From Planctomycetales bacterium (GTDB lineage: Bacteria > Planctomycetota > Planctomycetia > Pirellulales > Pirellulaceae), in contig JAGQPF010000123.1 in the NCBI GenBank assembly GCA_020426845.1, forward strand, positions 1-34,146: DNA of 34,146 nucleotides, given 5' to 3'. Both the position numbers and the translations under genes were made by a program. The notes beneath the pieces were generated by a model, which saw only the letters and a list, made by a program, of their open reading frames with translations, did not search any database and was not told the origin of the DNA. This document shows, piece after piece, positions 1 through 27,318 of the stretch; position 1 is the stretch's first letter, and the number at the start of each line of letters is the position of its first letter.

Positions 1-1219
1 CGGGGGCAATCGCATCCGCAGTCCAAGCCCGACGGCTCTCGACCACCGTTCTGAACGCCTCCGGCTCGATCCATTCTCCAAGTTTTCGGCTGACTTCGGG
101 ACGTTCGTGCAGTCGCTCCGTCTCACCCGTTCTGAGCAGATCGATGACGGCTTTGGCGATCTCCTTGTGTTTCAAGAGATCGACGTGCTCGGAGACCGCG
201 TATCGCGTCGGCACTTCATCGAGCTCGCACATCTGCAACGGCACCGTCCCGTCGCCGCTGTCCGACTTGAAGTACTCGAACTCACCCGACTCGGCGCGTC
301 TCAAGTGGGTCACGGTCGGCTGGCCGAAGCCCGCGATCAGGCGAAATCGCTCGTCCGGATCGGCCAAGCCGGCGCGCGCTTCCTGCGCGGCCTTCAAGCG
401 CGCGGCGGTCGGACGGTAGGGCGAGGTGGGCCAGGACTGGCGATCAAACAGATCGAACTCGTCAAACACATCCGGCTGAGGAAGCATCTCGTAGACGGAC
501 GGAAACGTGCTGAACGTCGACTTGACCAAGTCGACTGGATCCGTGCGACTGATCTTGCCAATCAATTGCACGGTGGAGTTGAGCCCCTGCAGCACTTGCA
601 CCGGCGAGAAGGAGCCGTGGTTAGGAGTGCCCAACATCACGATTCGCTTGATCTTTTTACGCACCTTGGGCGAGGCGGCCTTGAGCGCCGCGCGGCTGAC
701 CAGCCCGCCCATGCTATGGGCGACGATCATCACCTCGTCGGCGCGATCCGCGGCGATAAACTCGGCCAGCCGCTTGCCGAGCTCGGGGATGCTGCGGCGC
801 CAGTCGTAATGAAAACTGAGCACACGGAAGCCGGCGATCGTCAGCCGAAAGCGGATAAAGTTGTGCTTGAGCGGCACGATGCCCAAGGACTTGACGGGCG
901 AAGACTCGGTCAATTTCAGTTCGGGCGCATCGCCCATGGCAATGGACACCGGATCAAACCAGATCGTGTCGTTGCCGAACAGGGCGCGCGGCTTGCCCAA
1001 ACTGGAGCCGAGAATGCCGGGCAAAAAAACGACCGTCCCCCGATCGCGTCGACGCGTGGCCGGCAGCGCCTCACGAGCCAGATCGCGAAGCTCGTCATAA
1101 TCGGCGCCGAACATCCGACGCAACCGCGGATCATCAGCCGTGGCCAGCAGCCGATCGACCTCATACTCCGACAGCTCCCACGGCTCCCGATTTTCCGCCA
1201 CTCCCTGCTCGTCGCTCAT
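1..1219 (-). CDS. alpha/beta-hydrolase lipase/esterase (PGAP1/LCAT-like), partial: C-terminus runs off the window start
   Basis: Minus-strand translation from the ATG at 1217-1219 (in-frame TGA just upstream) reads MSDEQGVAENREPWELSEY... The protein contains PGILGSSLG, the GxSxG nucleophile elbow VAHSMGGLVS and LGTPNHGS. I found no stop codon down to position 1. The listed + ORF 107..1252 is its codon-aligned antisense shadow (R/L/G/H-rich, no motifs). Confidence 0.75.
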   Translation of the reverse strand, partial: MSDEQGVAENREPWELSEYEVDRLLATADDPRLRRMFGADYDELRDLAREALPATRRRDRGTVVFLPGILGSSLGKPRALFGNDTIWFDPVSIAMGDAPELKLTESSPVKSLGIVPLKHNFIRFRLTIAGFRVLSFHYDWRRSIPELGKRLAEFIAADRADEVMIVAHSMGGLVSRAALKAASPKVRKKIKRIVMLGTPNHGSFSPVQVLQGLNSTVQLIGKISRTDPVDLVKSTFSTFPSVYEMLPQPDVFDEFDLFDRQSWPTSPYRPTAARLKAAQEARAGLADPDERFRLIAGFGQPTVTHLRRAESGEFEYFKSDSGDGTVPLQMCELDEVPTRYAVSEHVDLLKHKEIAKAVIDLLRTGETERLHERPEVSRKLGEWIEPEAFRTVVESRRAWTADAIAP

Positions 1220-1452
1220 CCCGATGCCCCCCGATGTACTGACAGTGTTTAGTCAGTTGGAGTATAAACCGGGCGCCGAGCTCGCTCAACTTTTTCCATC
1301 GCGCCGGGGGGCGACGACACCGCCCGCGAGCCCATTAAGCCCGCGTTCGCCCCTTGGCCAGGCAACTTCTCACGCAAAGTCGCAAAGACGCAGGGGAAGG
1401 ATATTAGCGATCAAGTTTCCGGCGAGAGGTCCTCTTACATGAATTTGGTGCT

Positions 1453-1490
1453 CATCCGTGTTTCAACCGTGTTCATCCGTGGCCAATGTT
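1453..1490 (-). repeat. Family-D element: about 36-nt motif TGGCCACGGATGAACACGGTTGAAACACGGATGAGCA (minus sense) placed immediately 3' of the SPFH gene stop codon, with a second copy at 10696-10731
   Basis: The + strand sequence gtgctcatccgtgtttcaaccgtgttcatccgtggcca has a near-identical copy (ctcatccgtgtttcatcggtgttgcatccgtggcca) at 10696-10731. It contains a direct repeat of CACGGATGA. Confidence 0.5.
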
Positions 1491-2905
1491 CAGTGTTGGT
1501 CGGCGCCGCCGCCGAGCTTCTCCTCAACCTTGTCGGCCTGCCAAGCGACGGCGGTGATCAGTCGCGTGACCTCGAGCGGGTCGGCGGTGTCGGCCAATTG
1601 ATTGGCCTGCACGACGATGAAGTCGCCGGCCTCCGTGGACTGAATCGCAAAGGCGCCGTGGACCATTTTCAGGTTGTACTTCAGCAGTTGGACGGCGAGT
1701 CCGTCCTTGGCGGCGCCGCAGATCGAAGTGTAGGAGATCACGCGATGTCCCTCTTCATCGAGGCCGGCAAAGTTGACCGCGACGGTCTGCTTGCGGAGCG
1801 TGCCCACCGGGATGGTGATTTGCCAATGGTCGGACGCGGTCTCCTGGATCTGCCAGCCAGCCGCTTGCGCGACGTTTCTCACCAGTTGTTGAGGATCAAT
1901 GCCGGTCGCCGCGGCGCCCGCGTCAGGCGCGCCCAGGTCGGCAAAGTCCAAGCCGCCCGAGGCCGCAACCGGAGCGACTGGCGCCGCGGAGGGCTGGGGG
2001 GCAGGAGGAGCGGCACCTGGCTGCATCGGCTGTCCCGCAACGCCGGGTTGGCCGAAGGCTTGGGGATTCATCGCCTGATTGATCATGCCGGGCATCATCA
2101 TGCCGAACCCAGCGCCCATGCCCATGCCCATCGCGCCGCCGCCGGCGCCTTGTTGCTCCGCCATCTTGGCCATGCTATTGGCGGCCTGGTACATCGTGAA
2201 CGCTCGCAGGTCGCCGATGGCGCCCATGCTGCTGCGTTGATCGATCGCCTTCTGCACTTCCTCGGGCGGGGTGATCGCGTTGATGAAGAAGTCGGTGAGC
2301 TCGAGCCCGTAGCGCGCGAACTCTTCGGCAACCTTCAGCCTCACGGCGGCTCCGACCTCGTCAAATTTCGCCGGCAGGTCGAGCAAGCTGACTTGCATCG
2401 TGCCCAGCAGGTCGGTCATCCGTGAGACGATCAAATCCTTCAAGTAAGCCGTGATGTCGTCGGTGGTGTACTTGCCCTGCGTGCCCACCAATCCGTTGAG
2501 CAGCAGCTCGGACTCGACCACGCGGAAGGCAAACTTGCCGAAGCTCCGCAGCCGGACAACGCCAAAGTCAGCGTCGCGCACCGTGATCGGCTGCTTGGTG
2601 CCCCATTTCTGGTCGAGGAACGTCTGCTTGCCGATGAAGTAAACCTGCGCCTGGAACGGCGACTTTTCCCAGGGGATTGTCAGCAGGCGAGTCAGGACCG
2701 GCACATTGGCGGTCGTCAGCGTGTACCGCCCCGGCCCGAATTTATCCATCGCCTTGCCGTCACGGAAGAACACCGCCTCCTGGTTCTCCTGGACGATCAG
2801 CTGGGCGCCGAGCTTGATGTCGGCCGAGCCTTGCGGCGGAATGCGATGGACCAGCGAGCGATTGGACTCGTCAAAATAGTCGATGACTTCCAGGCGAAGA
2901 CCCAT
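1490..2905 (-). CDS. SPFH/band-7 family protein with a Met/Gly/Pro-rich low-complexity linker and a C-terminal alpha/beta (YbjN-like?) domain
   Basis: The 471-aa ORF has an AAGGAA RBS 6 nt before its ATG. The N-terminal 280 aa look like the Band_7_1/SPFH fold (…[18 protein letters not shown]…). A linker [36 protein letters not shown]…[15 protein letters not shown] follows, then a C-terminal globular domain. Confidence 0.85.
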
Positions 2906-3105
2906 GGTTGTTCCTTTGCTTTGATGGCTTCAGTTGATTTGTCGTTGGGATGTCACGGCTACGCGTGACCTTGCGGAGACTTTGAGTGGCTGGCGATTGA
3001 GTTGGACCGCCCCCGCCAACGCAAGTTTCCGAGTGACAGTTAATCGGCAGTTGTTCGACAGTTGTTCGATGGTTATCGGCGCTACTGGCGCTATCGACGA
3101 TATCG

Positions 3106-3621
3106 TTATTCACCGCCGGAGACGCCTTGCAGCATCTCGCCGCGGACCTTGAACGCCTGCTCAAACTCGCTGATGCGACGGAGGAGGTCCGAGACGACTG
3201 ACGCGGGAGTGTCGCCTTTGACCTCGAGTTGGCGAATGGAGCTGGCCAGCGCCTCGCACTGCTCCACCATGCGAAGGTCATGTTCGTAGACGCGATCCAG
3301 CAGCCCCGCGTCAACGCGGACATAGTCGAAGAATCCGCTGTAGCCACGCACTTGAGCGCGAATCAGTCCGATCAGTTTGTCGAGATTGACGCGGATGCGA
3401 TCGATTTCCGGCAGGGCGTCGAGATGCCCCGAGTTGAGCAGCCCTCGCGCGTATTCATCCAGCGAGGGTTTGGCGGCCTGCAGTTGATCGGCCATCGTCG
3501 TCCGCAATAGGTAGTCGGCCTCGCGGCGGTATTCCTTCTCCAGGTAGCCTCGAAAACCGGGTATCCACCTCAAAATGGACTCCACGAAATTCCGGGATTC
3601 CGCGTGTTGATGAGGCTCCAC
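3106..3621 (-). CDS. hypothetical protein (171 aa), GTG start
   Basis: The ORF has a strong AAGGAG RBS 5-6 nt upstream of the GTG at 3619-3621. It lies 200 bp upstream of the SPFH gene and is co-directional with it. I recognised no domain. Confidence 0.55.
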   Translation of the reverse strand: MEPHQHAESRNFVESILRWIPGFRGYLEKEYRREADYLLRTTMADQLQAAKPSLDEYARGLLNSGHLDALPEIDRIRVNLDKLIGLIRAQVRGYSGFFDYVRVDAGLLDRVYEHDLRMVEQCEALASSIRQLEVKGDTPASVVSDLLRRISEFEQAFKVRGEMLQGVSGGE

Positions 3622-3903
3622 AGCGACTCCTTGTGCGATTGTCGTGACGAGAACGAAAGTCAGAGAGAATTCGGCTCGGCCACGGATTTATTTGCGGGAA
3701 TCGGCCACGATCCGCAAGGCGAGGGGCCCGCGCGAGCTCGCCCCCGCGACCGAACGTCCTGGAACGGGCTGGCATCACGGCAGAAATCATAGCGAACATC
3801 GCCGATTTCGGCCACACAAACGCCACGGCGCGCCTTCTGTAGGGCTGGTGCGATTGAATTGAATGTCTACCGGCGAGAGCAACGCACCTCGGGCTCGCGC
3901 CCG

Positions 3904-3937
3904 AGGCTAACAACTGTCGCCCCTGCCGGGGCTGGAG
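3904..3937. repeat. Family-C REP-like element, single copy (GGCTAACaaCTGTCGCCCCTGCCGGGGC)
   Basis: It matches the GGCTA(A/C)CGTCTGTCGCCCCTnnnGGGGC core seen at 22170-23000, 26996-27318 and 27938-27975, and contains the hairpin gcccct-gcc-ggggc. Confidence 0.5.
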
Positions 3938-4106
3938 CGTTTGAATTGATCTCAAACCTGCCTTGCGGCGTCTGCGCCACTTCCCTACGATCCCGCACCG
4001 ATACGCGGCGCAGTCTGCGCACTCGGCCCTGACCGCGCTGAACTTGAACGAACTTCATGGGCGGGGTCGGCGTGTTTCGTGACGTGAGGATTGGGAGCTA
4101 ACGAAA

Positions 4107-5885
4107 ATGGCACGGAAGCGATGCGCCCCGTCAAACGGGCTTTGGGTCCTGGCGACGGCCACCCTCACTGCAATGGGCTGCACCAATCACTGGACGGCGC
4201 CGCGGCGAGTGCCTGTGGACCCGACCGCCGATGTGGACCTGCCCTCGGCCAACGCCGCGCCGCGCGAGTTCACCGCTCCCAACGACGTCCTGCGGATGCC
4301 CGCGACAGTCGGTCTGCCCCAGGCGCCCAAGATCGCCTACCCGGTGACTCCGGCCACGTCATTTCAGGAACAGCCTGGCGGTGTCGCGCCCGCTCAGTAT
4401 CAACAAGAGCCGTCACAGGTCGCCGTGGCGTCCATTAGTGACACCGGCAGTGAGCTGGGCACCGCCAACCACGTCCCGTTGCCACCCTTGTCGGCGCCTC
4501 CGGGCTCCGCCGAGGCGTTGGGACAAGCGTTCGGGCCGATGCAGCGGCTGCCGGAGTTGCCCGTCGCCGGAGAAATCTCCGGGGCGCCGCCCGCCTTGGA
4601 CAATGCGTTGTTCCCCGCCGGTGGGCCGACGATGGAGCCGCCGCCGTTTGACCCTGGTCGCATGCCCGAGATCGATCTGGACGTGCCGGAAATGGTGACG
4701 CCCGATGCGTTGCCCGATCCGCCCGCCGTGGATCCGGTGCCGGGCAGTGTCGAGTTCGGGCCTGGAGAACCAACACCGCTCAACGACACGGCCGACCCCC
4801 TGGACCCGCCGAATTCGCTGTTGCCGGCCGCAAGCGCGGCGCCGCTGCGAGCCAATTCGCCGCAACCACTTTCCGATGTCGAAGCGACGCCGATCCGAGC
4901 GCCGCAGTACGGCGGCTTTGAACCGCCCAACTTGGCGCTGCCCGCCGAGCCGGACGAGCCAGCAACCACGGCCGGTCGTCAGCCACTGCTGCCGGCGGGC
5001 GAGCCCGTGGAGCGGTCCTTGAGCGATGTGCCCGCCGAGAGCGCGGCGCCAGTCGAAGGCCCTCCGGCCATGGACGTCACCCCCATCGAGCTTCAAACGC
5101 CGCCGACCGTGTCGCCACCGGGCTCCGCCACGACGGAAACCAATGAGTTGGCACAACCCGTTGGGCCGTCTCCCGAGACCATGGCAAACTCCGGTGGCAC
5201 AACCGCATTGCCGGCGCCGGCCTCGGCCGCCCAGTCGCTCGTGCAGACGCTAAGCCTGTTACGCAAAGAGGCTGCCAGCGAGCAAGCCGATCCGCTGGAC
5301 GTCAAGCTGCTGCAGTTGCTGGAGGTCATCGCACATCCCGATGCACAGTGGCCCGAGAAGCTGCCGGCTGACCCGCGCTGGCGCGCCGTGGCCACGGCCG
5401 CTGCGCTCGAGTTGCGCGGGCAGCAGACCGACCGGCAGCGCGAGGTGCTGCAATCCGCGTTGGCGACGCTCGAGAGCGAGGCGCCGTTGAAGCTGCAAAA
5501 CCTGGCGTTCTGCCGACAGATCGACGACTTCGGCATCTACGCCGAGTTCAAGTCGCAGTTCCGCCCCGGCCAAGAGCTGTTGCTATACGTCGAAGTCGAG
5601 AACTTCGCGCACACCGAGACGCCCAACGGCTACTGCGTTGAAATCGAAGGCGGCTACGAGATCGTCGACGCCAACGGCCAAGTGGTTGAGAAACGCGAGT
5701 TCCTGGCCGACAAACAAACCTTCCGCCGCGAGCGTCGCGACTACTACATCCCGTATCGACTGTTCGTGCCCAAGACGATTCCGCCCGGCAAGTACACGCT
5801 GCGGCTGAACCTGACCGATGTGGCGTCGAAAACTTCGGGCGTCGGCTCGATCGAGTTGCCCGTGATCGCCGGTGAGCAGCCATGA
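4107..5885 (+). CDS. proline-rich probable lipoprotein with a C-terminal globular domain of unknown function
   Basis: The N-terminus MARKRCAPSNGLWVLATATLTAMGC is a signal peptide plus lipobox-like Cys. About 300 aa of Pro/Ala/Glu-rich low complexity follow. The C-terminal 180 aa are non-repetitive. The stop overlaps the next start (ATGA at 5882-5885). Confidence 0.75.
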   Translation: MARKRCAPSNGLWVLATATLTAMGCTNHWTAPRRVPVDPTADVDLPSANAAPREFTAPNDVLRMPATVGLPQAPKIAYPVTPATSFQEQPGGVAPAQYQQEPSQVAVASISDTGSELGTANHVPLPPLSAPPGSAEALGQAFGPMQRLPELPVAGEISGAPPALDNALFPAGGPTMEPPPFDPGRMPEIDLDVPEMVTPDALPDPPAVDPVPGSVEFGPGEPTPLNDTADPLDPPNSLLPAASAAPLRANSPQPLSDVEATPIRAPQYGGFEPPNLALPAEPDEPATTAGRQPLLPAGEPVERSLSDVPAESAAPVEGPPAMDVTPIELQTPPTVSPPGSATTETNELAQPVGPSPETMANSGGTTALPAPASAAQSLVQTLSLLRKEAASEQADPLDVKLLQLLEVIAHPDAQWPEKLPADPRWRAVATAAALELRGQQTDRQREVLQSALATLESEAPLKLQNLAFCRQIDDFGIYAEFKSQFRPGQELLLYVEVENFAHTETPNGYCVEIEGGYEIVDANGQVVEKREFLADKQTFRRERRDYYIPYRLFVPKTIPPGKYTLRLNLTDVASKTSGVGSIELPVIAGEQP

Positions 5886-7030
5886 TCTCCTGCGACGTCT
5901 TGGTGCTCGGCGTCGGCGGAGTCGGCTCCGCCGCGTTGGCGCAGCTGGCGTCGCGCGGAATACGCGCTATTGGCATCGACCGCTTCGCGCCTCCGCATGA
6001 TCGAGGCAGCTCGCACGGCCACACGCGAGCAATTCGGCAGGCCTATTTCGAACACCCCAACTATGTGCCGCTGCTCCGTCGCGCCTATGAGTTGTGGGAC
6101 GAACTCGAGCAATCCGTCGAAAAACATCTGTTTCACCGCGTCGGCCTGCTCGAAGCCGGCATTCCCGACGGCGAAGTCGTTCCCGGCGTGCTGGCCAGCG
6201 CCGCTGAGCACAACCTGGCGGTCCAGCGCTACTCGGTAGAGGAGGCTCGACGCCGCTGGCCCATGTTGAACTTCGACGACTCGTTCGACGTCGTGTTCGA
6301 GGAGAACGCGGGCTACCTGCTGGTGGAGCAGTGCATCGAAGCCAGCTGCGACATCGCGCGGCGGCACGGAGCCGAAATTCACACCGACGAAGTCGTGAGC
6401 TGGCGGCCGAGCGGGGAGGGCGTCGAGGTCGAGACGACCCAATCGCGTTACACCGCCTCGCGGTTGATTGTCACAGCGGGCGCCTGGGCAAGCGATCTGC
6501 TGGCGACCGCTGGACTACAAACGCCGCTCCGCGTGCTGCGAAAGCACTTGCACTGGCACCGGACCGCTGACCCGCGTTATCGCAGCACGGCTGGGCACGA
6601 CAGTTTCCCCGTATTCTTCTTTGAAGAGCCCGCTGATTGCGACGGCGTCGTGCGATTCTTTTATGGGTTCCCGCAGTGCGATGAACGTGGCGTCAAGGTC
6701 GCCGAGCACACCGGCGGCAGCGAAACGCCGGACCCGCTCACTGACCCGCGGGACACCGAGGCGGACGACATCGCTCGCGTTTCGGCGTTTGTCGACAAGC
6801 GATTGTCGGGCGTGACGGCGACGCCTCACGACCATCGCGTCTGCTTCTACACGATGTCGCCCGACGGGCATTTCGTCATCGACCGGCTGCCAACCGCGCC
6901 CGCCGTGTGTTTCGCCGCCGGACTCTCCGGCCACGGCTTCAAGTTCGCGCCCGCGCTGGCAGAGGCGTTGTGCCGTCTGGCGCTCGACGAGCCGATCTCG
7001 CTGCCGCTGGACTTTCTCCGCATGCGCTAA
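5882..7030 (+). CDS. FAD-dependent sarcosine oxidase / N-methyl-L-tryptophan oxidase family oxidoreductase (MSOX/MTOX)
   Basis: The N-terminal Rossmann motif VLVLGVGGVGSAA and the segment HGSSHGHTRAIRQAYFEHPNYVPLLRRAYELW match the monomeric sarcosine oxidase/SolA family. It is 382 aa and translationally coupled to the upstream lipoprotein gene. Confidence 0.8.
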   Translation: MISCDVLVLGVGGVGSAALAQLASRGIRAIGIDRFAPPHDRGSSHGHTRAIRQAYFEHPNYVPLLRRAYELWDELEQSVEKHLFHRVGLLEAGIPDGEVVPGVLASAAEHNLAVQRYSVEEARRRWPMLNFDDSFDVVFEENAGYLLVEQCIEASCDIARRHGAEIHTDEVVSWRPSGEGVEVETTQSRYTASRLIVTAGAWASDLLATAGLQTPLRVLRKHLHWHRTADPRYRSTAGHDSFPVFFFEEPADCDGVVRFFYGFPQCDERGVKVAEHTGGSETPDPLTDPRDTEADDIARVSAFVDKRLSGVTATPHDHRVCFYTMSPDGHFVIDRLPTAPAVCFAAGLSGHGFKFAPALAEALCRLALDEPISLPLDFLRMR

Positions 7031-7084
7031 GGGCAGGCCGTGACGTCTTCGTTTGGCCTCCCAGAACGGATCGCGCAGACCGGT

Positions 7085-7305
7085 TTGCGCGCAAACCCCA
7101 ATCATCACAGGCTGGCAGCCTGTGCCACGTTGTGCGCAAACCCCCAATCGTCACAGGCTGGCAGCCTGTGCCACGTTGCGCGCAAACCCCAATCGTCACA
7201 GGCTGGCAGCCTGTGCCACGTTGCGCGCAACCCCCAATCATCACAGGCTGGCAGCCTGTGCCACGTTGCGTGCAACCCAAATCATCACAGGCTGAGCGGC
7301 CGGCC
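7085..7305. repeat. Family-A tandem array: five copies of a 45-bp unit, each carrying the 17-bp perfect palindrome ACAGGCTGGCAGCCTGT
   Basis: Copies of cacaggctggcagcctgtgccacgttgcgcgcaaaccccaatcgt begin at about 7106, 7152, 7197, 7242 and 7286. The last copy is degenerate. Confidence 0.85.
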
Positions 7306-7431
7306 AATTTCGACACCTGTCGAACAGGGGTTCCTTGGCTCACCAAATGCGGGCCATTGAGGGATTTTGGGGAAGTTTGGTGAGATTCGGTGAGGCACTT
7401 TCAAGGCGGTTTACGTTGTACCTAACAGTCG

Positions 7432-7461
7432 TTGAAAACAGCCTCCCAATCCCCCTATAAT
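7432..7461 (+). promoter_or_regulatory. near-consensus sigma70-type promoter (TTGAAA, 18-bp spacer, TATAAT), about 240 nt upstream of the protease-domain gene
   Basis: The sequence is gtTGAAAacagcctcccaatcccccTATAATcc in an AT-richer intergenic stretch. The next gene starts at 7702. Confidence 0.45.
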
Positions 7462-7701
7462 CCATCCCCAGCATACACCATCTCCACCCATATGCCGGGG
7501 TAGGTGCGCCAAGATATAACATCCCATGTGTGAACCTCGGGTCACATCCACGACGTGGATAATTCACAAACTTAATTAGCTCGATGGCCGGCCTGTCACG
7601 GCCTTCCAGCGTGTTGCCTGCTGCGGTGTCGGATCCGGAGAGGAGTCCCGCCAAACTCTTCGGATTCACCGCAAACAACACTCCGTTCAAGGGGCCTAGC
7701 T

Positions 7702-10494
7702 TTGAGTCAAATCGTTCTCGAGTGCCCGCACTGTAAGACCATTTTGTCCGGGCAGTCCATTCCCGCCGCCGGGACCAAACTGGACTGCCCCCAGTGCGAA
7801 CGCCCGTTTGTTGCGGAGCCGGTTCCGCTCGCGCAACTTCAAGCCCAGCGACAAGCCCAGCAGCAACAACGATTGCTTGCCGAACAGCAGCAACGATTGC
7901 TCGCCGAGCAGCAGCGTCAGCTAGCGATGCAAGAGGCGCAGCTGCGAGCACGCGCACAGGCCGAGGCGCAGCGGTCCGACCCGCTCAACCAGCCCACGCC
8001 ATCAACCTCGAGGCCGCGCACGCTCAAGGCACTCAACAAGCGCTCGCAGCCTCACATCCACCCAGCCGCGCTGATGGGGCTCGGCGCCGGCGCGGTCCTC
8101 GCCATTGCGCTGATGGTGATGATGTTCAGCGGCGGCGGAGACGAGTCGCCAAACGACGATTCCGAAACGCCGGCGAGCGGGTTGATCGCCCAGAACTCAA
8201 GCTCGGGACGATCCCCCGGCGACATCGCACAAGAGTTGCCCGTCAACTCCACGGAAGGCGGGTTTAGCGGTGGCAGCACGTTCGGCGGCGGCGGGCGTTT
8301 TGGCAGCGGTTCACCCGCCGCGTCACAACCGACCGCCTCCTCCAGCGGAAGCGAGCTTGCCTCGTCCGATTCTCCGTCGGTGAACGATTCTTCCACATCC
8401 GAGCCCGCCAACACGAGCTCGTCGCCCTCGCGCGGTGTCAGTCAATTCGCGCAATTGCCTGCATTGAAGATGGTGCCCGACACGCTGTATGGATGGCGGC
8501 CCGCACGCGAGTACATCTATCGCGTCACACTCTCCAAGAACGCCGACGGCAAAACCGAATCGCTGTCGGGCCGGATGATGTACAAGGTCAACGCCGAGGC
8601 GAGTCAGCCGATGGCGGGCACGGCCACGGGCACCGCGTTTGTCGTTCACAGCGATGGCATTTTGGTCACTTGCGCGCATGTGGTGGACTCCGCGTCCACC
8701 GTGCACGTGACGGTCGGCAACGAACGGTACCCCGCCGATGTGATCGGGTTCGACGACGAGCATGACTTGGCCGTGCTGCGCGTGCAGGCAACCGGGATGC
8801 CGTCGCTGCCGCTGGCCGACTCGGAACAAGTGCAGCTCGCCGAGGCGATTCGCGTGATCGGCTATCCGATCTCGGATATTCTCGGCACCAGCGTCAAAGT
8901 GACTCAGGGCTCAATCGCGGGCGTGGTGGACCAAGAAGTGAAGCTGTTGCAGGTGGACGCGACGGTGAATCCCGGCAATAGCGGCGGGCCGATGCTGAAC
9001 GATCGTGGCGAAGTGCTGGGAGTCGTGACTTCGGGCCTGTTTGGCAGCGACCTGGCGGAAGTGGGATTCTGCATGCCCGCCAATGACGTCCGCAACTTGT
9101 TGAAGAAAACCGGCGTGCCGTTCAAGACCGGCGGCTCCGCGGCCGCGATGGACGGCCCCGCGCTGGCCAAGGTCGCCGTGCCGAGCGTCGCCTTTGTCGA
9201 GGTGACACTTGGTGGAGGCGGAAGCGACGCGACGACCAAGCTGCTCACTTATGAAGGCGCGTTAAGCGGAGGAGTCATTCTCGGCGCGCTCGCTGCCAGC
9301 CCCTATGGCGAGGTGCTCAACGAAGAGCTGGAGTCGGAGAGCGACGAGGTCGGACTGTTCTCGGGCGACTTGGCCGGCGGTTTGTTCCAGAAAATCCCTC
9401 GCCCCGGCGTAAGCAGTTGGGAGGCCAATCGCGTCACCACCGCGATGGTCCGCAACGGAGAGAACACTCGAGAGGTTCCGGTCATGGAGCAGTCCGTCTC
9501 CGCGGTGAAGCAAGACGACAGCCAGGTGCTGGTCATCGAACGAAAGTACAGCGTCATGGCCATGGCGGACGGATCGATGGTGGAGCAACTCCCCAACGGC
9601 ACCGCGACCTGGGAGTTTGACAAAGCACAAAAGGTGCCACGCCTGGCGTCCGTCCAACTGCGTCGCCAGCGCGGCGGCCAAACCGAGTCCATCACGATCC
9701 GATACGAATTGGAGCCGCAGGGCACATCGTGGGCCACAACGCTCGAAGGCCGCACGATTATGGCGGTGAAAAGCGGCATCGCCAGAGAGGCGTTCGGTGG
9801 CGGCGCCACGCCTAGCTCGCCTAGCTCGCCGAGAACGCCGGCGCCAAGCTATGTCACCTTTACGGGTCTCGAGCCGAGCCAGAAGGTCGACTTGGCGGTC
9901 GTCACGCTCAAGGATGTCTCCAAACAATACAACCACGCCACTTGCTTGCGGGAGCTCGCGACGCTGGAGGTGATCCCCGAGCGCAAGGACGAGGTTTCCG
10001 AGGCGATCGAGGCGGCATTCCGCTACCGCCCCAACGCCCCCTACTGCATTCAGGCGTGTGTGGTGTGGGGAACCAAGCGGAACGTCGACTCGCTCCTCAC
10101 CCAGTTGGTCACGCTCAACGGCGTCACCTACGCTCGTGACGTGATCGCCGCGCTGAGAACCTGCGGGCCAACCCCCGACTCGGTCATGACCGTGATTGCG
10201 TTCTGTGGAGGCCTGTCCACTTCCAGGTCGATCTTGCTGAACGACGTGAAGCTCGAGGGGGTCAAGTTCCTCGCCGCGGCCCCGGAGTTGTCGGAGGAAG
10301 TCGCGTTGAGGCTGCTGAAGCATCCCAAGGATGAGTTGCGGATAGCCGCCTGCCAAGTCCTTGGCGCCGTCGGCAGTAAAGAAGCGCTGGTGCCGCTACG
10401 CACCGCCACCGCCAGCAACCGGGCCAACACCGCCTTGGTAAAAGCCGCCGCCAAAGAGGCTGCCAAAACGATTCAGTTCCGCATCGGCAGCTAA
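7702..10494 (+). CDS. multidomain protein: N-terminal MJ0042-type zinc ribbon, Gln-rich coiled coil, TM helix, S1C (HtrA-like) trypsin-family serine protease domain, C-terminal HEAT/PBS-lyase repeats
   Basis: The N-terminus has CPHC…CPQC, followed by the QQQRLLAEQQ repeat and the TM helix LMGLGAGAVLAIALMVMMF. The catalytic triad context is VTCAHVV, DLAVLRV and GNSGGPML. The C-terminal repeats read LRLLKHPKDELRIAACQVLGAVG. It is probably a TTG start with AAGGGG 8 nt upstream. Confidence 0.85.
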   Translation: MSQIVLECPHCKTILSGQSIPAAGTKLDCPQCERPFVAEPVPLAQLQAQRQAQQQQRLLAEQQQRLLAEQQRQLAMQEAQLRARAQAEAQRSDPLNQPTPSTSRPRTLKALNKRSQPHIHPAALMGLGAGAVLAIALMVMMFSGGGDESPNDDSETPASGLIAQNSSSGRSPGDIAQELPVNSTEGGFSGGSTFGGGGRFGSGSPAASQPTASSSGSELASSDSPSVNDSSTSEPANTSSSPSRGVSQFAQLPALKMVPDTLYGWRPAREYIYRVTLSKNADGKTESLSGRMMYKVNAEASQPMAGTATGTAFVVHSDGILVTCAHVVDSASTVHVTVGNERYPADVIGFDDEHDLAVLRVQATGMPSLPLADSEQVQLAEAIRVIGYPISDILGTSVKVTQGSIAGVVDQEVKLLQVDATVNPGNSGGPMLNDRGEVLGVVTSGLFGSDLAEVGFCMPANDVRNLLKKTGVPFKTGGSAAAMDGPALAKVAVPSVAFVEVTLGGGGSDATTKLLTYEGALSGGVILGALAASPYGEVLNEELESESDEVGLFSGDLAGGLFQKIPRPGVSSWEANRVTTAMVRNGENTREVPVMEQSVSAVKQDDSQVLVIERKYSVMAMADGSMVEQLPNGTATWEFDKAQKVPRLASVQLRRQRGGQTESITIRYELEPQGTSWATTLEGRTIMAVKSGIAREAFGGGATPSSPSSPRTPAPSYVTFTGLEPSQKVDLAVVTLKDVSKQYNHATCLRELATLEVIPERKDEVSEAIEAAFRYRPNAPYCIQACVVWGTKRNVDSLLTQLVTLNGVTYARDVIAALRTCGPTPDSVMTVIAFCGGLSTSRSILLNDVKLEGVKFLAAAPELSEEVALRLLKHPKDELRIAACQVLGAVGSKEALVPLRTATASNRANTALVKAAAKEAAKTIQFRIGS

Positions 10495-10509: not shown

Positions 10510-10695
10510 CCTCGGCCGGCGCAAGTCGGCTGCGCAGTGCCGCACGGGCGAGGGCGCCCATGCTACGCGCGAAGCGTGCCTTCGCCGGCGCAAGTGGGCT
10601 GCGCAATGCCGCACGGGCGAGGGCGCCCATGCTACGCGCGAAGCGTGCCTTGGCCGGCGCAAGTGGGCTGCGCAGTGCCGCACGGGGCCTTGCTC
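10510..10695. repeat. Family-B tandem repeat: about 2.7 copies of an approximately 61-bp unit (GGCCGGCGCAAGTGGGCTGCGCAGTGCCGCACGGGCGAGGGCGCCCATGCTACGCGCGAAGCGTGCCTT)
   Basis: The direct repetition is visible in the sequence. It lies in the convergent intergenic region between the protease gene and ettA. A related copy at 14263-14380 is in the inverted orientation. Confidence 0.8.
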
Positions 10696-10741: not shown

Positions 10742-12418
10742 TTAGCTTTGGGCCATGCGTTTGTAGCGGAAACGCTTGGGCTCGTCGTCGCTGATGCCGA
10801 GCCGCTCGCGACGCTGCGTCTCGTAGGCCTCGAAGTTGCCCTCGCACCAGTGCACATAGGCGTCGCCTTCGAAGGCCAAAATGTGCGTGGCGATGCGATC
10901 GAGGAACCAGCGGTCGTGGGTGATCACGACCACGCAGCCGGCGTAGTTGAGAATCGCCTCCTCTAGCGCCCGTAGCGTGTCGACGTCCAGGTCGTTCGTC
11001 GGCTCGTCCAACAGCAAGACGTTGGAGCCGCGCCGCAGCAGCTTGGCCAGGTGCACGCGATTCCGCTCGCCGCCGGAGAGATTGCCGACCTTCTTCTCCT
11101 GATCGGGGCCGCGGAAGTTGAACCGCGAGACGTACGCGCGGGCGTTCACCTTGCGGCCGCCCATCTCCAGCGTCTCGTGGCCGCCCGAGATCTCCTGAAA
11201 AACGGTCTTCTCCGGGTCCAGCGCATCTCGGTTCTGGTCCACGTAGCCCATCTCGACCGTCGCCCCAACTCGCAGCGTGCCGGAATCGGGCTCCTGCTCG
11301 CCGGTCATCATGCGGAACAGCGTCGTCTTGCCGGCGCCGTTGGGGCCGATCACACCGACGATGCCGCCCGCCGGCAAGCGAAAGGTCAGGTTCTCGACCA
11401 GCAGGTTCTCGCCGAACGACTTCGTGATGTTGCTGGCCTCGACCACCAAGTCGCCCAGGTGCTTGCCGGGCGGGATCTGGATTTCGAACTCGTCGGGCCG
11501 CTCCTCGAATTGCGCCGAGGCGAGCTCCTCGTATGCCTTCAAGCGGGCCTTGCTCTTGGCCTGCCGAGCTTTCGGGGCCATCCGCACCCACTCGAGCTCG
11601 CGAGCCAGCGTGCGTTGCCGCGCGACGTTCGAGCGTTCCTCCTGAGCCAGCCGCGCCTGCTTCTGCTCGAGCCAGGACGAGTAGTTGCCTTCCCAGGGAA
11701 TGCCCTTGCCGCGATCCAATTCGAGGATCCAGCCGGCGACATTGTCGAGGAAGTAGCGATCGTGCGTGACGGCGACGACCGTGCCCTGGTATTCGTGCAA
11801 GGTGCGTTCGAGCCAGGCGACCGCCTCGGCGTCCAGGTGGTTGGTCGGCTCGTCCAGCAACAGCAGATCGGGACGTCGCAGCAGCAACTTGCACAGCGCC
11901 ACTCGGCGCCGCTCGCCGCCGGAAAGTTTCGCGACGTCGGCGTCCTTGGCCGGGAGGTTCATCACGTCCATCGCGATTTCGACTTCCCGGTCCAGCTCCC
12001 AGGTGTTGTTGGCTTCGATCACATCCTGCAGCCGCGCCATCTCGTCGCACAGCTTTTGCATGCGGTCGTCATCCATCGGCTCGGCCAACAACACGCCGAT
12101 CTCGTTGTAGCGATCGAGCACGGCGCGTCGGTCGGCGACAGCCTCCTGCACATTGCCCCAAACATCTTTCTCGGGGTTCAGCTGCGGCTCTTGTGACAGA
12201 TACCCGCACGTGAAGCCGTCGGTCAGTCGCGCCTCGCCGTCAAACTCTTTGTCGAGCTCGGCCATGATTCGCAGCAGGGTGCTTTTGCCCGCCCCGTTGC
12301 GGCCGAGCACGCCGATTTTGGCGCCCGGATAAAAGGAGAGCCAGATCTCCTTTAGCACCTCGCGCTGGCCGTGCTTCTTGGTCAGGTTCGTGATCGTGTA
12401 GATGTATTGCTTTCCCAT
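10742..12418 (-). CDS. ettA: energy-dependent translational throttle protein EttA (ABC-F family ATPase)
   Basis: It is near-collinear with E. coli EttA/YjjK. Shared segments include [49 protein letters not shown] and [24 protein letters not shown], with two Walker A and two signature motifs. The true start is MGKQYIY (ATG 12416-12418, GGAGAGG RBS). The upstream ORF extension translates the family-A palindrome. Confidence 0.92.
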
Positions 12419-12440
12419 GACGGGAATTCCTCTCCGTAGC

Positions 12441-12513
12441 ACAGGCTGCCAGCCTGTGATCATTTTTGTTAACTAGGAACCTGTTGGGCCGCAGGTTGCA
12501 GGCTGGCAGCCTG
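12441..12513. repeat. Two further family-A palindrome copies (cacaggctgccagcctgtg at 12441-12463; gcaggctggcagcctgc at 12497-12513)
   Basis: These are the same CAGGCTGGCAGCCTG palindrome as the 7085-7305 array. They sit between the guaA stop and the ettA start. Confidence 0.8.
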
Positions 12514-12548
12514 CACTACGACGAGTTTTCAACGGGCTTCCCGGCTGC

Positions 12549-14138
12549 TCACTCCCACTCGATGGTGGCCGGTGGCTTGGAGCTGATGTCGTAACAAACT
12601 CGGTTCACGCCTTTGACTTCGTTAATGATTCGCGTCGAAATGCGAGCCAGCAAGTCGTAGGGCAGGTGGCTCCAGTCGGCGGTCATAAAATCTTCGGTGC
12701 TGACGCAACGAACCGCGATCGTGCTTTCGTAGGTACGCAGATCGCCCATGACTCCGACACTTTGCACCGGCAACAACACCGCGAACGCTTGCGACGTGGC
12801 GCGGTACCAACCGGCCGCCTTGATCTCGCCAACGACGATCGCGTCGGCCTCCCGCAGCATCCGCAGCCCCTCTTCGGTCACCTCGCCCAGGCACCGCACG
12901 GCGAGCCCCGGTCCGGGGAACGGGTGCCGCCAAACCAGCTCCTCGGGCAGGCCAAGCTCCAGCCCCAGCCGCCGCACTTCGTCTTTAAACAGGTCGCGGA
13001 GCGGCTCGATCAACTCAAAGCCCAGCTCGTCCGGCAGTCCGCCCACGTTGTGGTGCAGCTTGATGGTGGCCGCCGGGCCGTCGGGGGCCGCGCCGCTTTC
13101 GATCACGTCGGGATATAGCGTGCCTTGAGCGAGAAAGTGAGCGTTCTCGACCTTGCTCGCCTCTTCCTTGAAGCAGCGAATGAATTCAGCGCCGATGCGG
13201 CGACGCTTTTCCTGCGGCTCGGTGATGCCCGCCAGAACCTCCATAAAGCGGTCGCCGGCGTTGACGACGTGCAGATCGGTCTTGAAGTGGTTCGTGAACT
13301 CCTCGACCACCGACTCCTCCTCGGCCTTCCGCAGCAGTCCGTTGTCGACCAGGATGCAGGTCAACTGCGAGCCGATCGCCTTGGAGAGCAGGGCGGCGAC
13401 CACCGACGAGTCGACACCGCCGGAGAGTCCACAAATCACGCGAGCGTCACCAACTCGTCGGCGAACGTTTTCGATCACCTCGGCCGCGAAGTCGCCGAGT
13501 TTCCAGGTGCCTTCGCAGCCGCAGACGGCGCCGAGGAAATTGGCGAGCAACCTTTTGCCTTCGGGCGTGTGCGTCACCTCCGGGTGGAACTGCAACCCGT
13601 AAACGGGCAGCGACGTATGTTTCACCGCCGCAAACGGACAGGTGTCGGTCCGCGCCAGCGAGCGAAACTCGTCCGACACTTCGGAGACCTGATCGCCGTG
13701 GCTCATCCAGACTTCCGACTCGTCGGGGAAGCCGGCGAGCAACGGGTCCTCCGCGTCAACGACATAGCATTGCGAGCGACCGTACTCGCGGGATTCGGCG
13801 CTCTCGACTCGGCCGCCCAGAGCTTCGCAGGCCAGCTGCATCCCGTAACAAATGCCCAGCACGGGGATGCCGAGCTGAAACAGTTGCGGATCGCACTTGG
13901 GCGCCCCGTCGTCGTAAACACTCGACGGGCTGCCCGACAGGATCAAGCCCTTGGGTCGCCTCGCCAGCACCGCGTCGACGGCGATATCGTGTCGCACAAT
14001 TTCGCAGAACACCTCCTGCTCGCGGACCCGGCGCGCGATTAATTGTGCGTATTGGGAGCCAAAATCGAGGATCAAAACGCGTTGATCCGTCAGCGTCGTG
14101 TGCGCCGACTGAGGGGCGACCTGCGTCATCGCGCTCAT
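12549..14138 (-). CDS. guaA: GMP synthase (glutamine-hydrolysing)
   Basis: It is collinear with E. coli GuaA, with a class-I glutamine amidotransferase domain ([15 protein letters not shown]), the ATP-PPase motif [10 protein letters not shown] and the C-terminal KPPATIEWE. The start is MSAMTQ or MTQ (14138 or 14129). The listed 761-aa ORF is over-extended through repeat family B. Confidence 0.92.
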
Positions 14139-14262: not shown

Positions 14263-14380
14263 GACGCCCGTGACTTCGTGCCCTTCGCGTACCATGGGCG
14301 TCTCGCCCGTGACTTCGTGCCCTTCGCGTAGCATGGGCGTCTTGAGCGAGGACGCGCAAGGACGCCCATGCTACGGACGA
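14263..14380. repeat. Family-B related repeats: two copies of a 36-bp unit (CCCGTGACTTCGTGCCCTTCGCGTAnCATGGGCGTCT) plus an inverted partial copy
   Basis: The direct repeat is followed by gacgcccatgctacgg, the reverse complement of the unit's end. It lies in the divergent guaA/surE promoter region. Confidence 0.75.
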
Positions 14381-15219: not shown

Positions 15220-15312
15220 TGATTCGGTTTAAGTCCAGTAGGGTGACGGGGTGGGCAATTCGATCCCTCGCTTACGCTAGCGCCAGCGACAGATAGGCCT
15301 CCGAAAAACCGT

Positions 15313-22228: not shown

Positions 22229-22690
22229 CCCCAGGCGCAAGCCGGCGCAAGCCCGTGGAGTGGCGCGGGCCGCGCGCAAAAAGCCCCGGAGGGCCGGAGG
22301 GGCGACAGACGGTAGCCGTGGGCGCAAGCCGGCGCAAGCCCAGGGAATGAGGCGCGGGCCGCGCGCAAAAAGCCCCGGAGGGGCGACAGACGGTAGCCTT
22401 GGGCGCAAGCCCAAGGAATGAGGCGCGGGCCGCGCGCAAAAAGCCCAGGAGGGGCGACAGACGTTTGCCCTGGGCGCGAGCCGGCGCAAGCCCAGGGAAT
22501 GAGGCCCGGGCCGCGCGCAAAAAGCCCCGGAGGGGCGACAGACGGTAGCCTTGGGCGCAAGCCCAAGGAATGAGGCGCGGGCCGCGCGCAAAAAGCCCCG
22601 GAGGGGCGACAGACGGTAGCCCTGGGCGTAAGCCGGCGTAAGCCCAGGGAATGAGGCGCGCAAGCCGCGCAGCGCCGGCGGCTCGCGCGG
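22170..22690. repeat. Family-C tandem array, orientation 1: about 6 copies of a 66-78-bp unit (GCGCGGGCCGCGCGCAAAAAGCCCCGGAGGGGCGACAGACGGTAGCCnnGGGCGCAAGCC[GGCGCAAGCC]CAGGGAATGAG)
   Basis: The repetition is visible in the sequence. Each unit holds two palindromes (gcgcgg-g-ccgcgc; gcccc-gga-ggggc) flanked by an A5 run, which reads as a hairpin + U5 on the minus strand. Peptides repeat in the shadow ORFs on both strands. Confidence 0.9.
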
Positions 22691-22735
22691 TTCAATGAAC
22701 ACGTCGCCCCGCAAGGCAGAGCCAACTCGCACAAC

Positions 22736-23000
22736 TCCACGGGCTTGCGCCCGTGGCTACCTTCTGTCGCCCCTTGCGGGGCTGGTGCGCGTGGTGTGCG
22801 CGACTCCACGGGCTTGCGCCCGTGGCTACCTTCTGTCGCCCCTTGCGGGGCTGGTGCGCGTGGCGTGCGCGACTCCACGGGCTTGCGCCCGTGGCTACCT
22901 TCTGTCGCCCCTTGCGGGGCCTGGTGCGCGTGGTGTGCGCGACTCCACGGGCTTACGCCCGTGGCTACCTTCTGTCGCCCCTTGCGGGGCCGGTGCGCAT
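22736..23000. repeat. Family-C tandem array, inverted orientation: 4 copies of a 69-bp unit (CACGGGCTTGCGCCCGTGGCTACCTTCTGTCGCCCCTTGCGGGGCTGGTGCGCGTGGTGTGCGCGACTC)
   Basis: The units are roughly the reverse complement of those in 22170-22690 and lie about 45 bp from them. This creates an approximately 800-bp quasi-palindromic region between mug and the propeller gene. Confidence 0.9.
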
Positions 23001-26730: not shown

Positions 26731-26995
26731 GACAAGCTCCTCACCTAAAGGCCCAAGTGACGTGGAATCCTTCGGATGACGGGAAAAGGGGTTCCCCGGA
26801 TGGAGAAGGTGCTTTTCCTCGTCTTGTTAGAAAACAAGCAATTCTCGCGCCGGCAGGCAATGTCGAAGCGACCGTTGGAACCCGGCCTTGCAGTCAACAC
26901 GTTGAAGGTGGATTCGATTGCCAGTTGGCGCCTAGACGTCGCGAAGCGTCACGGCAGAACACAACCGCGCTGTGCGTTCACGCACGCCACGGCTC

Positions 26996-27318
26996 CACGG
27001 GCTCGCGCCCGTGGCTAACGTCTGTCGCCCCTCCGGGGCTTTTTAGCGTAATGAACTTGAGCGAAGTTCGACCGGTTTGCGCCACGTTTCCACAGGCGCG
27101 CTCGCAGATTCACGGGCGCGCACGCCGATCCACGGGCTCACGCCCGTGGCTAACGTCTGTCGCCCTTGGGGGCTTTTTCAGCGTTATGAACTTGAGCGAA
27201 GTTCGACCGGTTTGCGCCGCATTTCCACGGGCGCGCACGCAGATACATGGGCGCGCACGCCACGCGCACAAGCCCCGAAGGGGCGACAGACGTTAGCCAC
27301 GGGCGCGAGCGCGTGGAA
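26996..27318. repeat. Family-C composite repeats: two copies of an approximately 135-bp unit plus one inverted core copy
   Basis: cacgggctcgcgcccgtggctaacgtctgtcgcccctccggggctttttagcgtaatgaacttgagcgaagttcgaccggtttgcgcc… repeats at 26996 and 27131. The inverted core agccccgaaggggcgacagacgttagccacgggcgcgagcgcgtgg is at 27270-27318. Each unit has a hairpin + T5. Confidence 0.85.

Follow-up and report, generated by a model that had tools for sequence, protein, structure and literature searches.

Two sites in a 34,146-nucleotide (nt) contig of a Planctomycetales metagenome-assembled genome (MAG), the single contig by which the source genome is covered here and the whole window of this analysis, carry copies of one short palindrome: a tandem array at 7085-7294 and an inverted pair at 12436-12519. 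These copies are very probably (about 0.87) repetitive extragenic palindromes (REPs) of the GTAG type and likely substrates of a REP-associated tyrosine transposase (RAYT, also TnpA_REP), with the pair being an inverted REP dimer and the array a product of local reiteration. RAYTs are single-copy HUH-tyrosine nucleases related to the IS200/IS605 transposases. The first-pass annotation had wavered between a second REP family and a high-affinity operator array, and the evidence favors the former. Each complete copy is a short hairpin with a GT[AG]G tag, both sites are intergenic, the pair has its tags outward, the same core is spread over many genomes, and elsewhere RAYT genes are flanked by variants that differ from the window copies by a single nucleotide.

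Hairpin, tag and arrangement of the copies

The repeat was first described as a perfect palindrome of 17 bp. Because the length is odd, the central base has no complement within the site, and scoring on the reverse strand gives one mismatch. The symmetry of the site is instead 8+1+8, or 9+1+9 with the adjoining C/G pair, which gives the 19-mer CACAGGCTGGCAGCCTGTG. Read on the strand with the central C, all six complete copies are 23-mers in which GT[AG]G precedes a hairpin with an 8-bp stem and a loop of 3 nt. The consensus is GT[AG]G-CACAGGCT-GCC-AGCCTGTG (written through, GT[AG]G-CACAGGCTGCCAGCCTGTG), with the unpaired tag at one foot of a hairpin of 8-9 bp. Four copies have the tag GTGG and two have GTAG, in each case directly adjoining the fully paired stem (offset 0), while the opposite flank reads ATCA, GATC or GGTT; the tag thus stands at one end only. 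Single hairpins have predicted stabilities of -11.9 to -13.3 kcal/mol as RNA. When up to two mismatches are allowed, the 17-mer has 11 matches in the window, compared to 0.01 expected from dinucleotide shuffles of the same sequence.

A REP has been defined as GTAG or GTGG lying 0-2 nt from a stem of 7-20 bp with a loop of 2-5 nt (PMC6006769, Methods). The window copies agree with published GTAG-type REPs in tag, stem, loop, one-sidedness and extragenic placement between tandem or convergent genes. The search filter of the same study also demands at least three G or C among the first four basal stem bases, and the basal CACA of this family has two of four. Because this is a rule of the pipeline and not a biological criterion, a search of that type could have missed the family.

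The array (7085-7294, minus strand) is a head-to-tail tandem repeat for which Tandem Repeats Finder reports a period of 45, 4.7 copies, 93% matches and a score of 362. Each 45-bp unit consists of a 20-nt spacer and a 25-nt REP that includes the tag, GTGG, read on the minus strand. Five such units had been annotated; the 45-bp tandem array is real, but only four of its palindromes are complete. The exact 17-mer ACAGGCTGGCAGCCTGT occurs at 7107, 7153, 7198 and 7243, within minus-strand REP copies at 7106-7128, 7152-7174, 7197-7219 and 7242-7264 that are all the same 23-mer, GTGG-CACAGGCT-GCC-AGCCTGTG. The fifth copy (7286-7294, minus strand) is reduced to the single arm CACAGGCTG (plus-strand letters). 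It stops in the hairpin loop, lacks the second arm and the tag, and is followed by unrelated AGCGG. Across the units, the spacers (about 100 nt in total) contain 8 differences, and the REP with its tag (108 nt in total) contains none (Fisher p=0.0025).

The spacer has no match elsewhere in the window or in 160 fetched loci, and the 45-bp unit is therefore a local amplification of a REP and its adjacent DNA. Local reiteration is the most likely origin of the array: one REP with 20 nt of neighboring DNA would have been repeated head to tail by hairpin-promoted slippage, unequal exchange or RAYT-mediated rejoining. Several other readings of the array were rejected. It is not a CRISPR array, as its 20-nt "spacers" are not unique but repeat a single sequence, with 0-3 differences in each. 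Nor is it a bacterial interspersed mosaic element (BIME), since all copies share one orientation at a 45-bp period without alternation. A likeness to a sigma-54 promoter (TGGCA..TGC) fails on inspection because the GG-to-GC spacing is 10, not 12. A 10-bp palindrome within the spacer, TTGCGCGCAA, is broken in units 2 and 5 and was given no role.

Two more copies had been noted at 12441-12513, and both were found, at 12440-12458 and 12498-12514. In the first, the exact 17-mer (12441-12457) lies on the minus strand, the orientation opposite to that of the array copies. In the second, GCAGGCTGGCAGCCTGC, the outermost pair is altered on both sides (A..T to G..C), so that the palindrome is kept. With their tags, the copies are GTAG-CACAGGCT-GCC-AGCCTGTG at 12436-12458 (plus strand), 18 nt from the ettA ATG, and GTAG-TGCAGGCT-GCC-AGCCTGCA at 12497-12519 (minus strand), a compensatory stem variant 30 nt from the guaA stop. 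They form the left and right halves of an 84-bp dimer at 12436-12519 with its tags outward (head-to-head, HH). The spacer between them is 38 nt, and in the fold of the intergenic RNA the two REPs pair with each other in one stem of about 22 bp. The fold of the 141-nt guaA-ettA intergenic RNA has an energy of -65.4 kcal/mol (z=-5.84), and none of 200 shuffles was equally stable. Two inverted REPs, a short spacer and one long hairpin are what defines a REPIN (a REP doublet that forms a hairpin), and all are present here. The two copies do not bracket the guaA-ettA junction, as had been proposed; both fall within the spacer, 130 nt long, that separates the guaA stop (12549-12551) from the ettA ATG (12418).

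Recurrence of the core and association of its close variants with RAYT genes

An exact scan for CACAGGCTGGCAGCCTGTG on both strands of one genome per species (596 Gb) returned at least 73 loci in other genomes, compared to about 4 expected at equal base frequencies. The taxonomy of these loci is that of the record titles, gene positions come from a rough model based on third-codon-position G+C content, and the counts that follow apply among the matches listed. By title, 28 loci belong to the Planctomycetota (16 of them in one Pirellulaceae assembly, PLA7), 19 to the Verrucomicrobiota, 7 to the Acidobacteriota and 3 to the Nitrospirota. Three more carry Deltaproteobacteria or Desulfobaccales labels, 2 each are labelled Binatota, Armatimonadota, and Bacteroidota or Ignavibacteriota, 1 is labelled Chloroflexota, and 6 have unclear or improbable labels. 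The source contig itself has two sites with six complete copies in 34 kb. Several matches are on contigs of 0.1-1.5 Mb, which makes mis-binning unlikely as a general explanation, and single matches in some of the labelled phyla may be due to chance. The 19-mer was present in two viral contigs in the collection searched, and carriage by phages found no support.

The tag emerges from these loci without having been selected for, as the flank count began from the bare 19-mer. The 3' flank is YYAC in 51 of 77 copies (CTAC 30, CCAC 13, TCAC 6), and in another 12, mostly on Verrucomicrobiota-labelled contigs, CTCC comes next. A complementary flank on the opposite side is found in only 7 of 77. Taken together, these counts indicate that the tag is real, one-sided and unpaired. 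Copies at most 110 nt apart have their tags outward in 23 of 23 pairs, the window pair included. Under the rough gene model, 11% of copies at the 73 listed loci fall inside gene bodies, compared to 60% of random positions, and intervals with both neighbors called are tandem in 26 cases, convergent in 13 and divergent in 4.

Two groups of loci carry the core in a modified setting. In Verrucomicrobiota-labelled loci such as L012, L016, L033, L037, L046 and L050, CTCCCC(A/G)G follows the 19-mer in place of CTAC, and a second, variable hairpin of the pattern CGGC..GCCG precedes it; judged by its sequence, this is a lineage-specific form with two hairpins and a GGAG-type tag. In three loci of a Nitrospiraceae MAG (L028, L040, L051), the exact 19-mer is centered in a larger conserved inverted repeat, ..CTCACGCAGAGGCGCAGAG..[REP]..TTTGCGCCTCTGCGTGAAG.., which suggests a composite repeat, similar to a miniature inverted-repeat transposable element, built around the REP.

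Searches of the matched loci with phmmer, using approximate Escherichia coli YafM and IS608 TnpA queries, identified a RAYT only in L050, where the gene is flanked by a different REP, GGCAAGCG..CGCTTGCC-CTAC. A RAYT in L008, a contig that also carries the exact 19-mer, was found with a regular expression for the HuH motif. Its product scores 32.7 bits against Pfam Y1_Tnp (cut-off 23); the score for NCBIfam REP_Tyr_transpos, 74.9 bits, falls just short of the cut-off (80). The gene is flanked upstream by ACAGGCTTCCAGCCTGT and GTAGC-GCAGGCTTCCAGCCTGC and downstream by GCAGGCTGGAAGCCTGC-ACTAC and ACAGGCAGGATGCCTGT-GCTAC, and one downstream copy, GCAGGCTGGAAGCCTGCACTAC, is a single base from the window copy at 12498. 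The RAYT domain of L008 lies in a 1345-codon stop-free frame bounded by REPs (320-4357, minus strand), with a weak UDPGP match further downstream in the same frame; this long frame may reflect an insertion that kept the reading frame, or it may be open by chance.

Relatives of the L008 RAYT comprise 6288 proteins at E<=1e-10. Many carry the JGI label "REP element-mobilizing transposase RayT", and the source labels in this clade include Planctomycetes, Verrucomicrobiota, Hydrogenedentes and Sumerlaeota. When the profile of the clade was compared to solved structures, the top match was E. coli TnpA_REP (4ER8; E=5.5e-5, 25.8 bits), in an alignment that covers the HuH, WQ and Y motifs. The flanks of RAYT genes were surveyed at six looked-up loci and in an 80-locus metagenome scan. 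Nearly all of the genes have GT[AG]G-tagged hairpins on each side and in both orientations, with stems of 8-9 bp and loops that are mostly TCC or TCT. Some of these hairpins are very close to the window REP. In L108, L113 and L123, GTGGCACAGGCTTCCAGCCTGTG is 56 nt upstream of the RAYT match, and in L162, where the RAYT is labelled Planctomycetes, GTAGCACAGGCTTCCAGCCTGTG is about 40 nt upstream of the called open reading frame (ORF). Each differs from the window copies by a single loop base (T for G). Head-to-tail REP arrays also adjoin RAYT genes, with periods of 27 bp (L102, 5 copies), 57 bp (L126, 5 copies) and 92 bp (L156, 3 copies), as well as in L075 and L076.

Several features of the clade were observed alongside this survey. 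Many RAYT gene calls continue into REP-encoded peptides (GTGVPPV, GQASRLS, RQDACAT). In L074 (966-5110), a RAYT and its flanking REPs are located between PHP and DNA_pol3_alpha fragments upstream and HHH_6 and OB-fold domains downstream, which looks like an insertion inside a dnaE gene. The product, P0123, has about 80 extra N-terminal residues that are unique in the aligned clade and presumably translated from the gene upstream; REP-encoded residues come next. Insertions of REPs in dnaE and in repair genes have been reported (PMC3733652). In addition, RAYT genes and their REPs are syntenic between L108 and L123, among L094, L098 and L100, and among L087, L090 and L096, in contigs that are 81-89% identical in DNA. 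The REP at the same position in syntenic contigs can show a compensatory change (GTGGCACAGG..CCTGTG versus GTGGTACAGG..CCTGTA), and the synteny appears consistent with long-term vertical retention.

Based on homology with E. coli TnpA_REP, mobilization by a RAYT in the source genome is the most likely origin of the window copies. Such an enzyme would recognize the tag and hairpin on single-stranded DNA and would cut and rejoin at the REP, and REPs and REPINs would in this way be seeded through intergenic DNA.

Some of the results weigh against this interpretation. No RAYT gene was found in the window, for which the whole 34,146-nt contig was searched, and the exact GCC-loop sequence was not seen beside any RAYT, where variants 1-2 nt away were found instead. 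Other counts support the link between tagged hairpins and RAYT genes, with limits to what they describe. In 34 metagenome loci with full flanks, 88 tagged hairpins are within 250 bp of the RAYT and 36 in the remaining approximately 4.5 kb per locus. This density, about 22 times higher next to the gene, counts GT[AG]G palindromes of any stem and is thus a property of the clade and not of the window's REP. The 88 sequences compared (87 loci around RAYT genes and the window) yielded 149 distinct tagged 23-mers, whose alignment is circular with respect to pairing and tag, both of which were selection criteria. What is informative in the 81 aligned 23-mers is the conservation of the loop, with T13 at 90% or more and C14 invariant, and the diversity of the stem, in which all eight pairs vary on both sides while the closing C11-G17 pair is nearly fixed.

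Gene context and alternative explanations

Both window sites come soon after a stop codon in the direction of transcription. The array follows a gene for a flavin adenine dinucleotide (FAD)-dependent oxidoreductase (5882-7030, plus strand; Pfam DAO, E=2.6e-40), whose stop is 55 nt before the array. One source names the product N-methyl-L-tryptophan oxidase, and its closest homologue is only 58% identical. The only promoter-like site near the array is a sigma-70-like match, TTGAAA-18-TATAAT (11/12), at 7432-7461 on the plus strand, 138 nt after the array and ahead of a Trypsin_2 ORF at 7702-10494 (plus strand). The array at 7085-7294 is accordingly located between the end of the oxidase ORF and the promoter-like site of the protease gene, as originally annotated. 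No terminator-like site was found near it. The pair is located between two minus-strand genes, a guanosine monophosphate (GMP) synthase ORF (guaA) ending at 12549 and a gene for an EttA-type ABC-F protein at 10742-12418, the listed ORF of which extends to 12463 and crosses a repeat copy.

This context raises the question of whether the hairpins are maintained as RNA elements that stabilize mRNA or attenuate read-through, of the oxidase at the array and of guaA-ettA at the pair, independently of any transposase. Each hairpin is stable as RNA at the energies given above, both sites are just 3' of a stop codon, the bias toward tandem and convergent placement among the matches listed fits, and many REPs have been argued to act as RNA (PMC3733652). 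As a complete explanation, it is nevertheless improbable. Rfam gave no match at the gathering score at either site, and the region 6950-7750 produced only chance-level matches to microRNA models (E>=0.4). The array has neither a U-tract nor a terminator-like site, and at the pair the sole terminator-like match runs antisense to both genes. Moreover, a role in RNA leaves unexplained the strand-specific GT[AG]G tag and the tight flanking of RAYT genes. An RNA role is compatible with the REP interpretation as a secondary effect and does not replace it. If transcribed, the array hairpins would be in the 3' untranslated region of the oxidase mRNA, and those of the dimer would belong to a transcript shared by guaA and ettA, forming a structured spacer just ahead of the ettA ribosome-binding site. 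By comparison with REPs in other bacteria, it is plausible that such hairpins block 3' exonucleases or attenuate read-through.

The operator array proposed in the first-pass annotation, taken here as duplex sites bound by a dimeric transcription factor with the protease-domain gene and ettA as its targets, is very improbable. The dyad symmetry of 8-9 bp per half resembles such a site, one copy is found 18 nt ahead of the ettA start codon, and the array combines variable spacers with an unchanged REP part. The array is also 138 nt upstream of a strong promoter-like site, but it is more than 130 nt from the -35 element and clear of the promoter. Conservation of the flank is confined to one side, and this flank is unpaired. 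An identical core is found beside unrelated genes in about nine labelled phyla, and gene ends and convergent intervals are favored, with only 4 divergent intervals, among the matches listed. In the RAYT clade the stems vary freely with compensatory changes, which fits conservation of a hairpin shape and not of a fixed duplex sequence. A dimeric protein is also not what the E. coli system suggests, as TnpA_REP has been described as monomeric and as acting on hairpins of single-stranded DNA (PMC6006769).

Finally, that a chance palindrome was duplicated by slippage as a local minisatellite, with the copies at 12.4 kb coincidental, is hardly credible: the 20-nt spacer, found nowhere else in the window or the 160 fetched loci, does indicate that the 45-bp unit was amplified locally, but the tagged 23-nt core recurs in both orientations 5 kb away and, again with this tag, at 73 loci or more in other genomes, and window shuffles expect 0.01 matches.

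Relation to known REP systems and significance

The interpretation of the copies as GTAG-type REPs can be compared to several described systems. Di Nocera, De Gregorio and Rocco (2013; PMC3733652) describe a GTAG superfamily of 24 families that includes Rhodopirellula baltica, Planctomyces spp. and Opitutus terrae, with a GTGG tag in the Opitutus family. The window copies share with this superfamily the unpaired GTAG or GTGG at one end, the stem of 6-13 bp and the loop of 2-3 nt. They also share its occurrence as singles, HH dimers 20-100 bp apart and clusters formed by tandem reiteration with flanking DNA, its placement mostly between unidirectional or convergent genes, and, for close variants in other genomes, the flanking of RAYT genes. 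HH dimers with the tags outside are reported there as the commonest type and head-to-tail dimers as under-represented; the purely head-to-tail array of the window is thus the less usual form. The stem CACAGGCT/AGCCTGTG with a GCC loop was not found in the text or readable supplements of that paper, a comparison that leaves aside the consensus sequences in its Figure 1. A full-text literature search for a 15-mer of the core, as DNA or RNA, likewise found no paper. The SMAG repeats of Stenotrophomonas maltophilia (GTAG families 6-9, PMC3733652) are also GTAG stem-loops that occur as singles, dimers and clusters. In contrast to the window core, which is found across phyla, they have other stems, belong to another phylum and are described in that paper from S. 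maltophilia only.

The REPs and BIMEs of E. coli resemble the window family in the GTAG guide at the hairpin foot, and REPs flank the TnpA_REP gene (RayT/YafM, 4ER8) in a REPtron. This enzyme belongs to the same superfamily as the associated RAYT clade but is only distantly related to it (25.8 bits), the clade being found in the PVC group (Planctomycetes, Verrucomicrobia and Chlamydiae), the Acidobacteriota and related phyla. The E. coli stems are longer and bulged, and BIMEs alternate the orientation of their REPs with defined linkers, whereas the window array is direct. The dimer at 12436-12519 fits the stated definition of the Pseudomonas fluorescens REPINs (Bertels and Rainey, 2011, PMC3116915; PMC3337134), a comparison that rests on one doublet in the contig, while REPINs replicate as doublet units with many copies that share a spacer. 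A likeness also extends to the subterminal hairpins of IS200/IS605 elements, where a hairpin and a short guide or target tetranucleotide are read on single-stranded DNA by an HUH-Y1 enzyme. Unlike the two ends of an insertion sequence, however, the window copies are about 23 nt long and dispersed, with no transposase between them.

The window contains further GTAG-tagged families beside that of CACAGGCTGGCAGCCTGTG. Acido-Lenti-1 (RF01687), listed in Rfam as a small RNA, has ten gathering-score matches at 3887-3933, 22371-22991 and 26995-27316, on both strands and in tandem arrays with periods of 69-71 and 152 bp. At least six copies, all in the arrays at 22371-22991, begin with the hairpin GTAG-CCACGGGC-GCAA-GCCCGTGG. 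Here the motif may be another REP family, that is, REP DNA instead of a small-RNA gene; the only descriptive paper found in the literature merely lists Acido-Lenti-1. A third GTAG-tagged family is located at 10515-10686 and 14265-14342 (also at 695 and 14352). The protease and ettA genes, which converge, are separated by a 69-bp tandem repeat (2.5 copies) that contains it as GTAG-CATGGGCG-CCCT-CGCCCGTG, and a 39-bp repeat (2 copies) located upstream of guaA contains GTAC-CATGGGCG-TCT-CGCCCGTG. A lone hairpin at 15311, GTAC-GACGGACT-TCC-AGTCCGTC, has the TCC triloop typical of RAYT-flanking REPs. Toward the end of the contig, a tandem repeat with a 120-bp period and an AT skew of 0.37 (32344-33205) is present in about 5-8 copies. 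Both of its strands are open over long stretches, and the minus strand would read as a reiterated hydrophobic peptide (MLLLDRLIFVAAVMVIATVV...); more repeats at a spacing of 135-321 bp (33600-34146) run off the contig end.

For genome annotation, these REPs should be masked together with the spurious ORFs that cross them, for instance 7053-7295 and the 5' extension of ettA to 12463, and such repeats should not be taken for regulatory sites or genes. For strain typing, the 45-bp array would probably serve as a variable-number marker. The analysis also adds a well-defined REP family, whose stem has 8 bp and whose triloop is TCC or GCC, and which is tied to a very large RAYT clade. Studies of REP/RAYT systems have so far been concerned mainly with the Proteobacteria, and these systems are otherwise thought to be vertically inherited.

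While REPs of this kind are well known, and have been described as species-specific (PMC6006769), the unusual point is the identical 19-base core in bacteria labelled as about nine phyla among the matches listed. Whether CACAGGCTGGCAGCCTGTG and its YYAC tag have truly been kept identical across the Planctomycetota, Verrucomicrobiota, Acidobacteriota, Nitrospirota, Binatota, Armatimonadota and others is doubtful, and the proposal is a tentative one. Because the RAYT clade tolerates many stems (149 distinct 23-mers in 88 sequences), such identity would not be forced by the enzyme. If true, it would point to repeated transfer of REP/RAYT systems between phyla or to an unusually constrained, ancient "consensus" REP, and it would provide a concrete case for testing whether the inheritance of REP/RAYT systems is always vertical.

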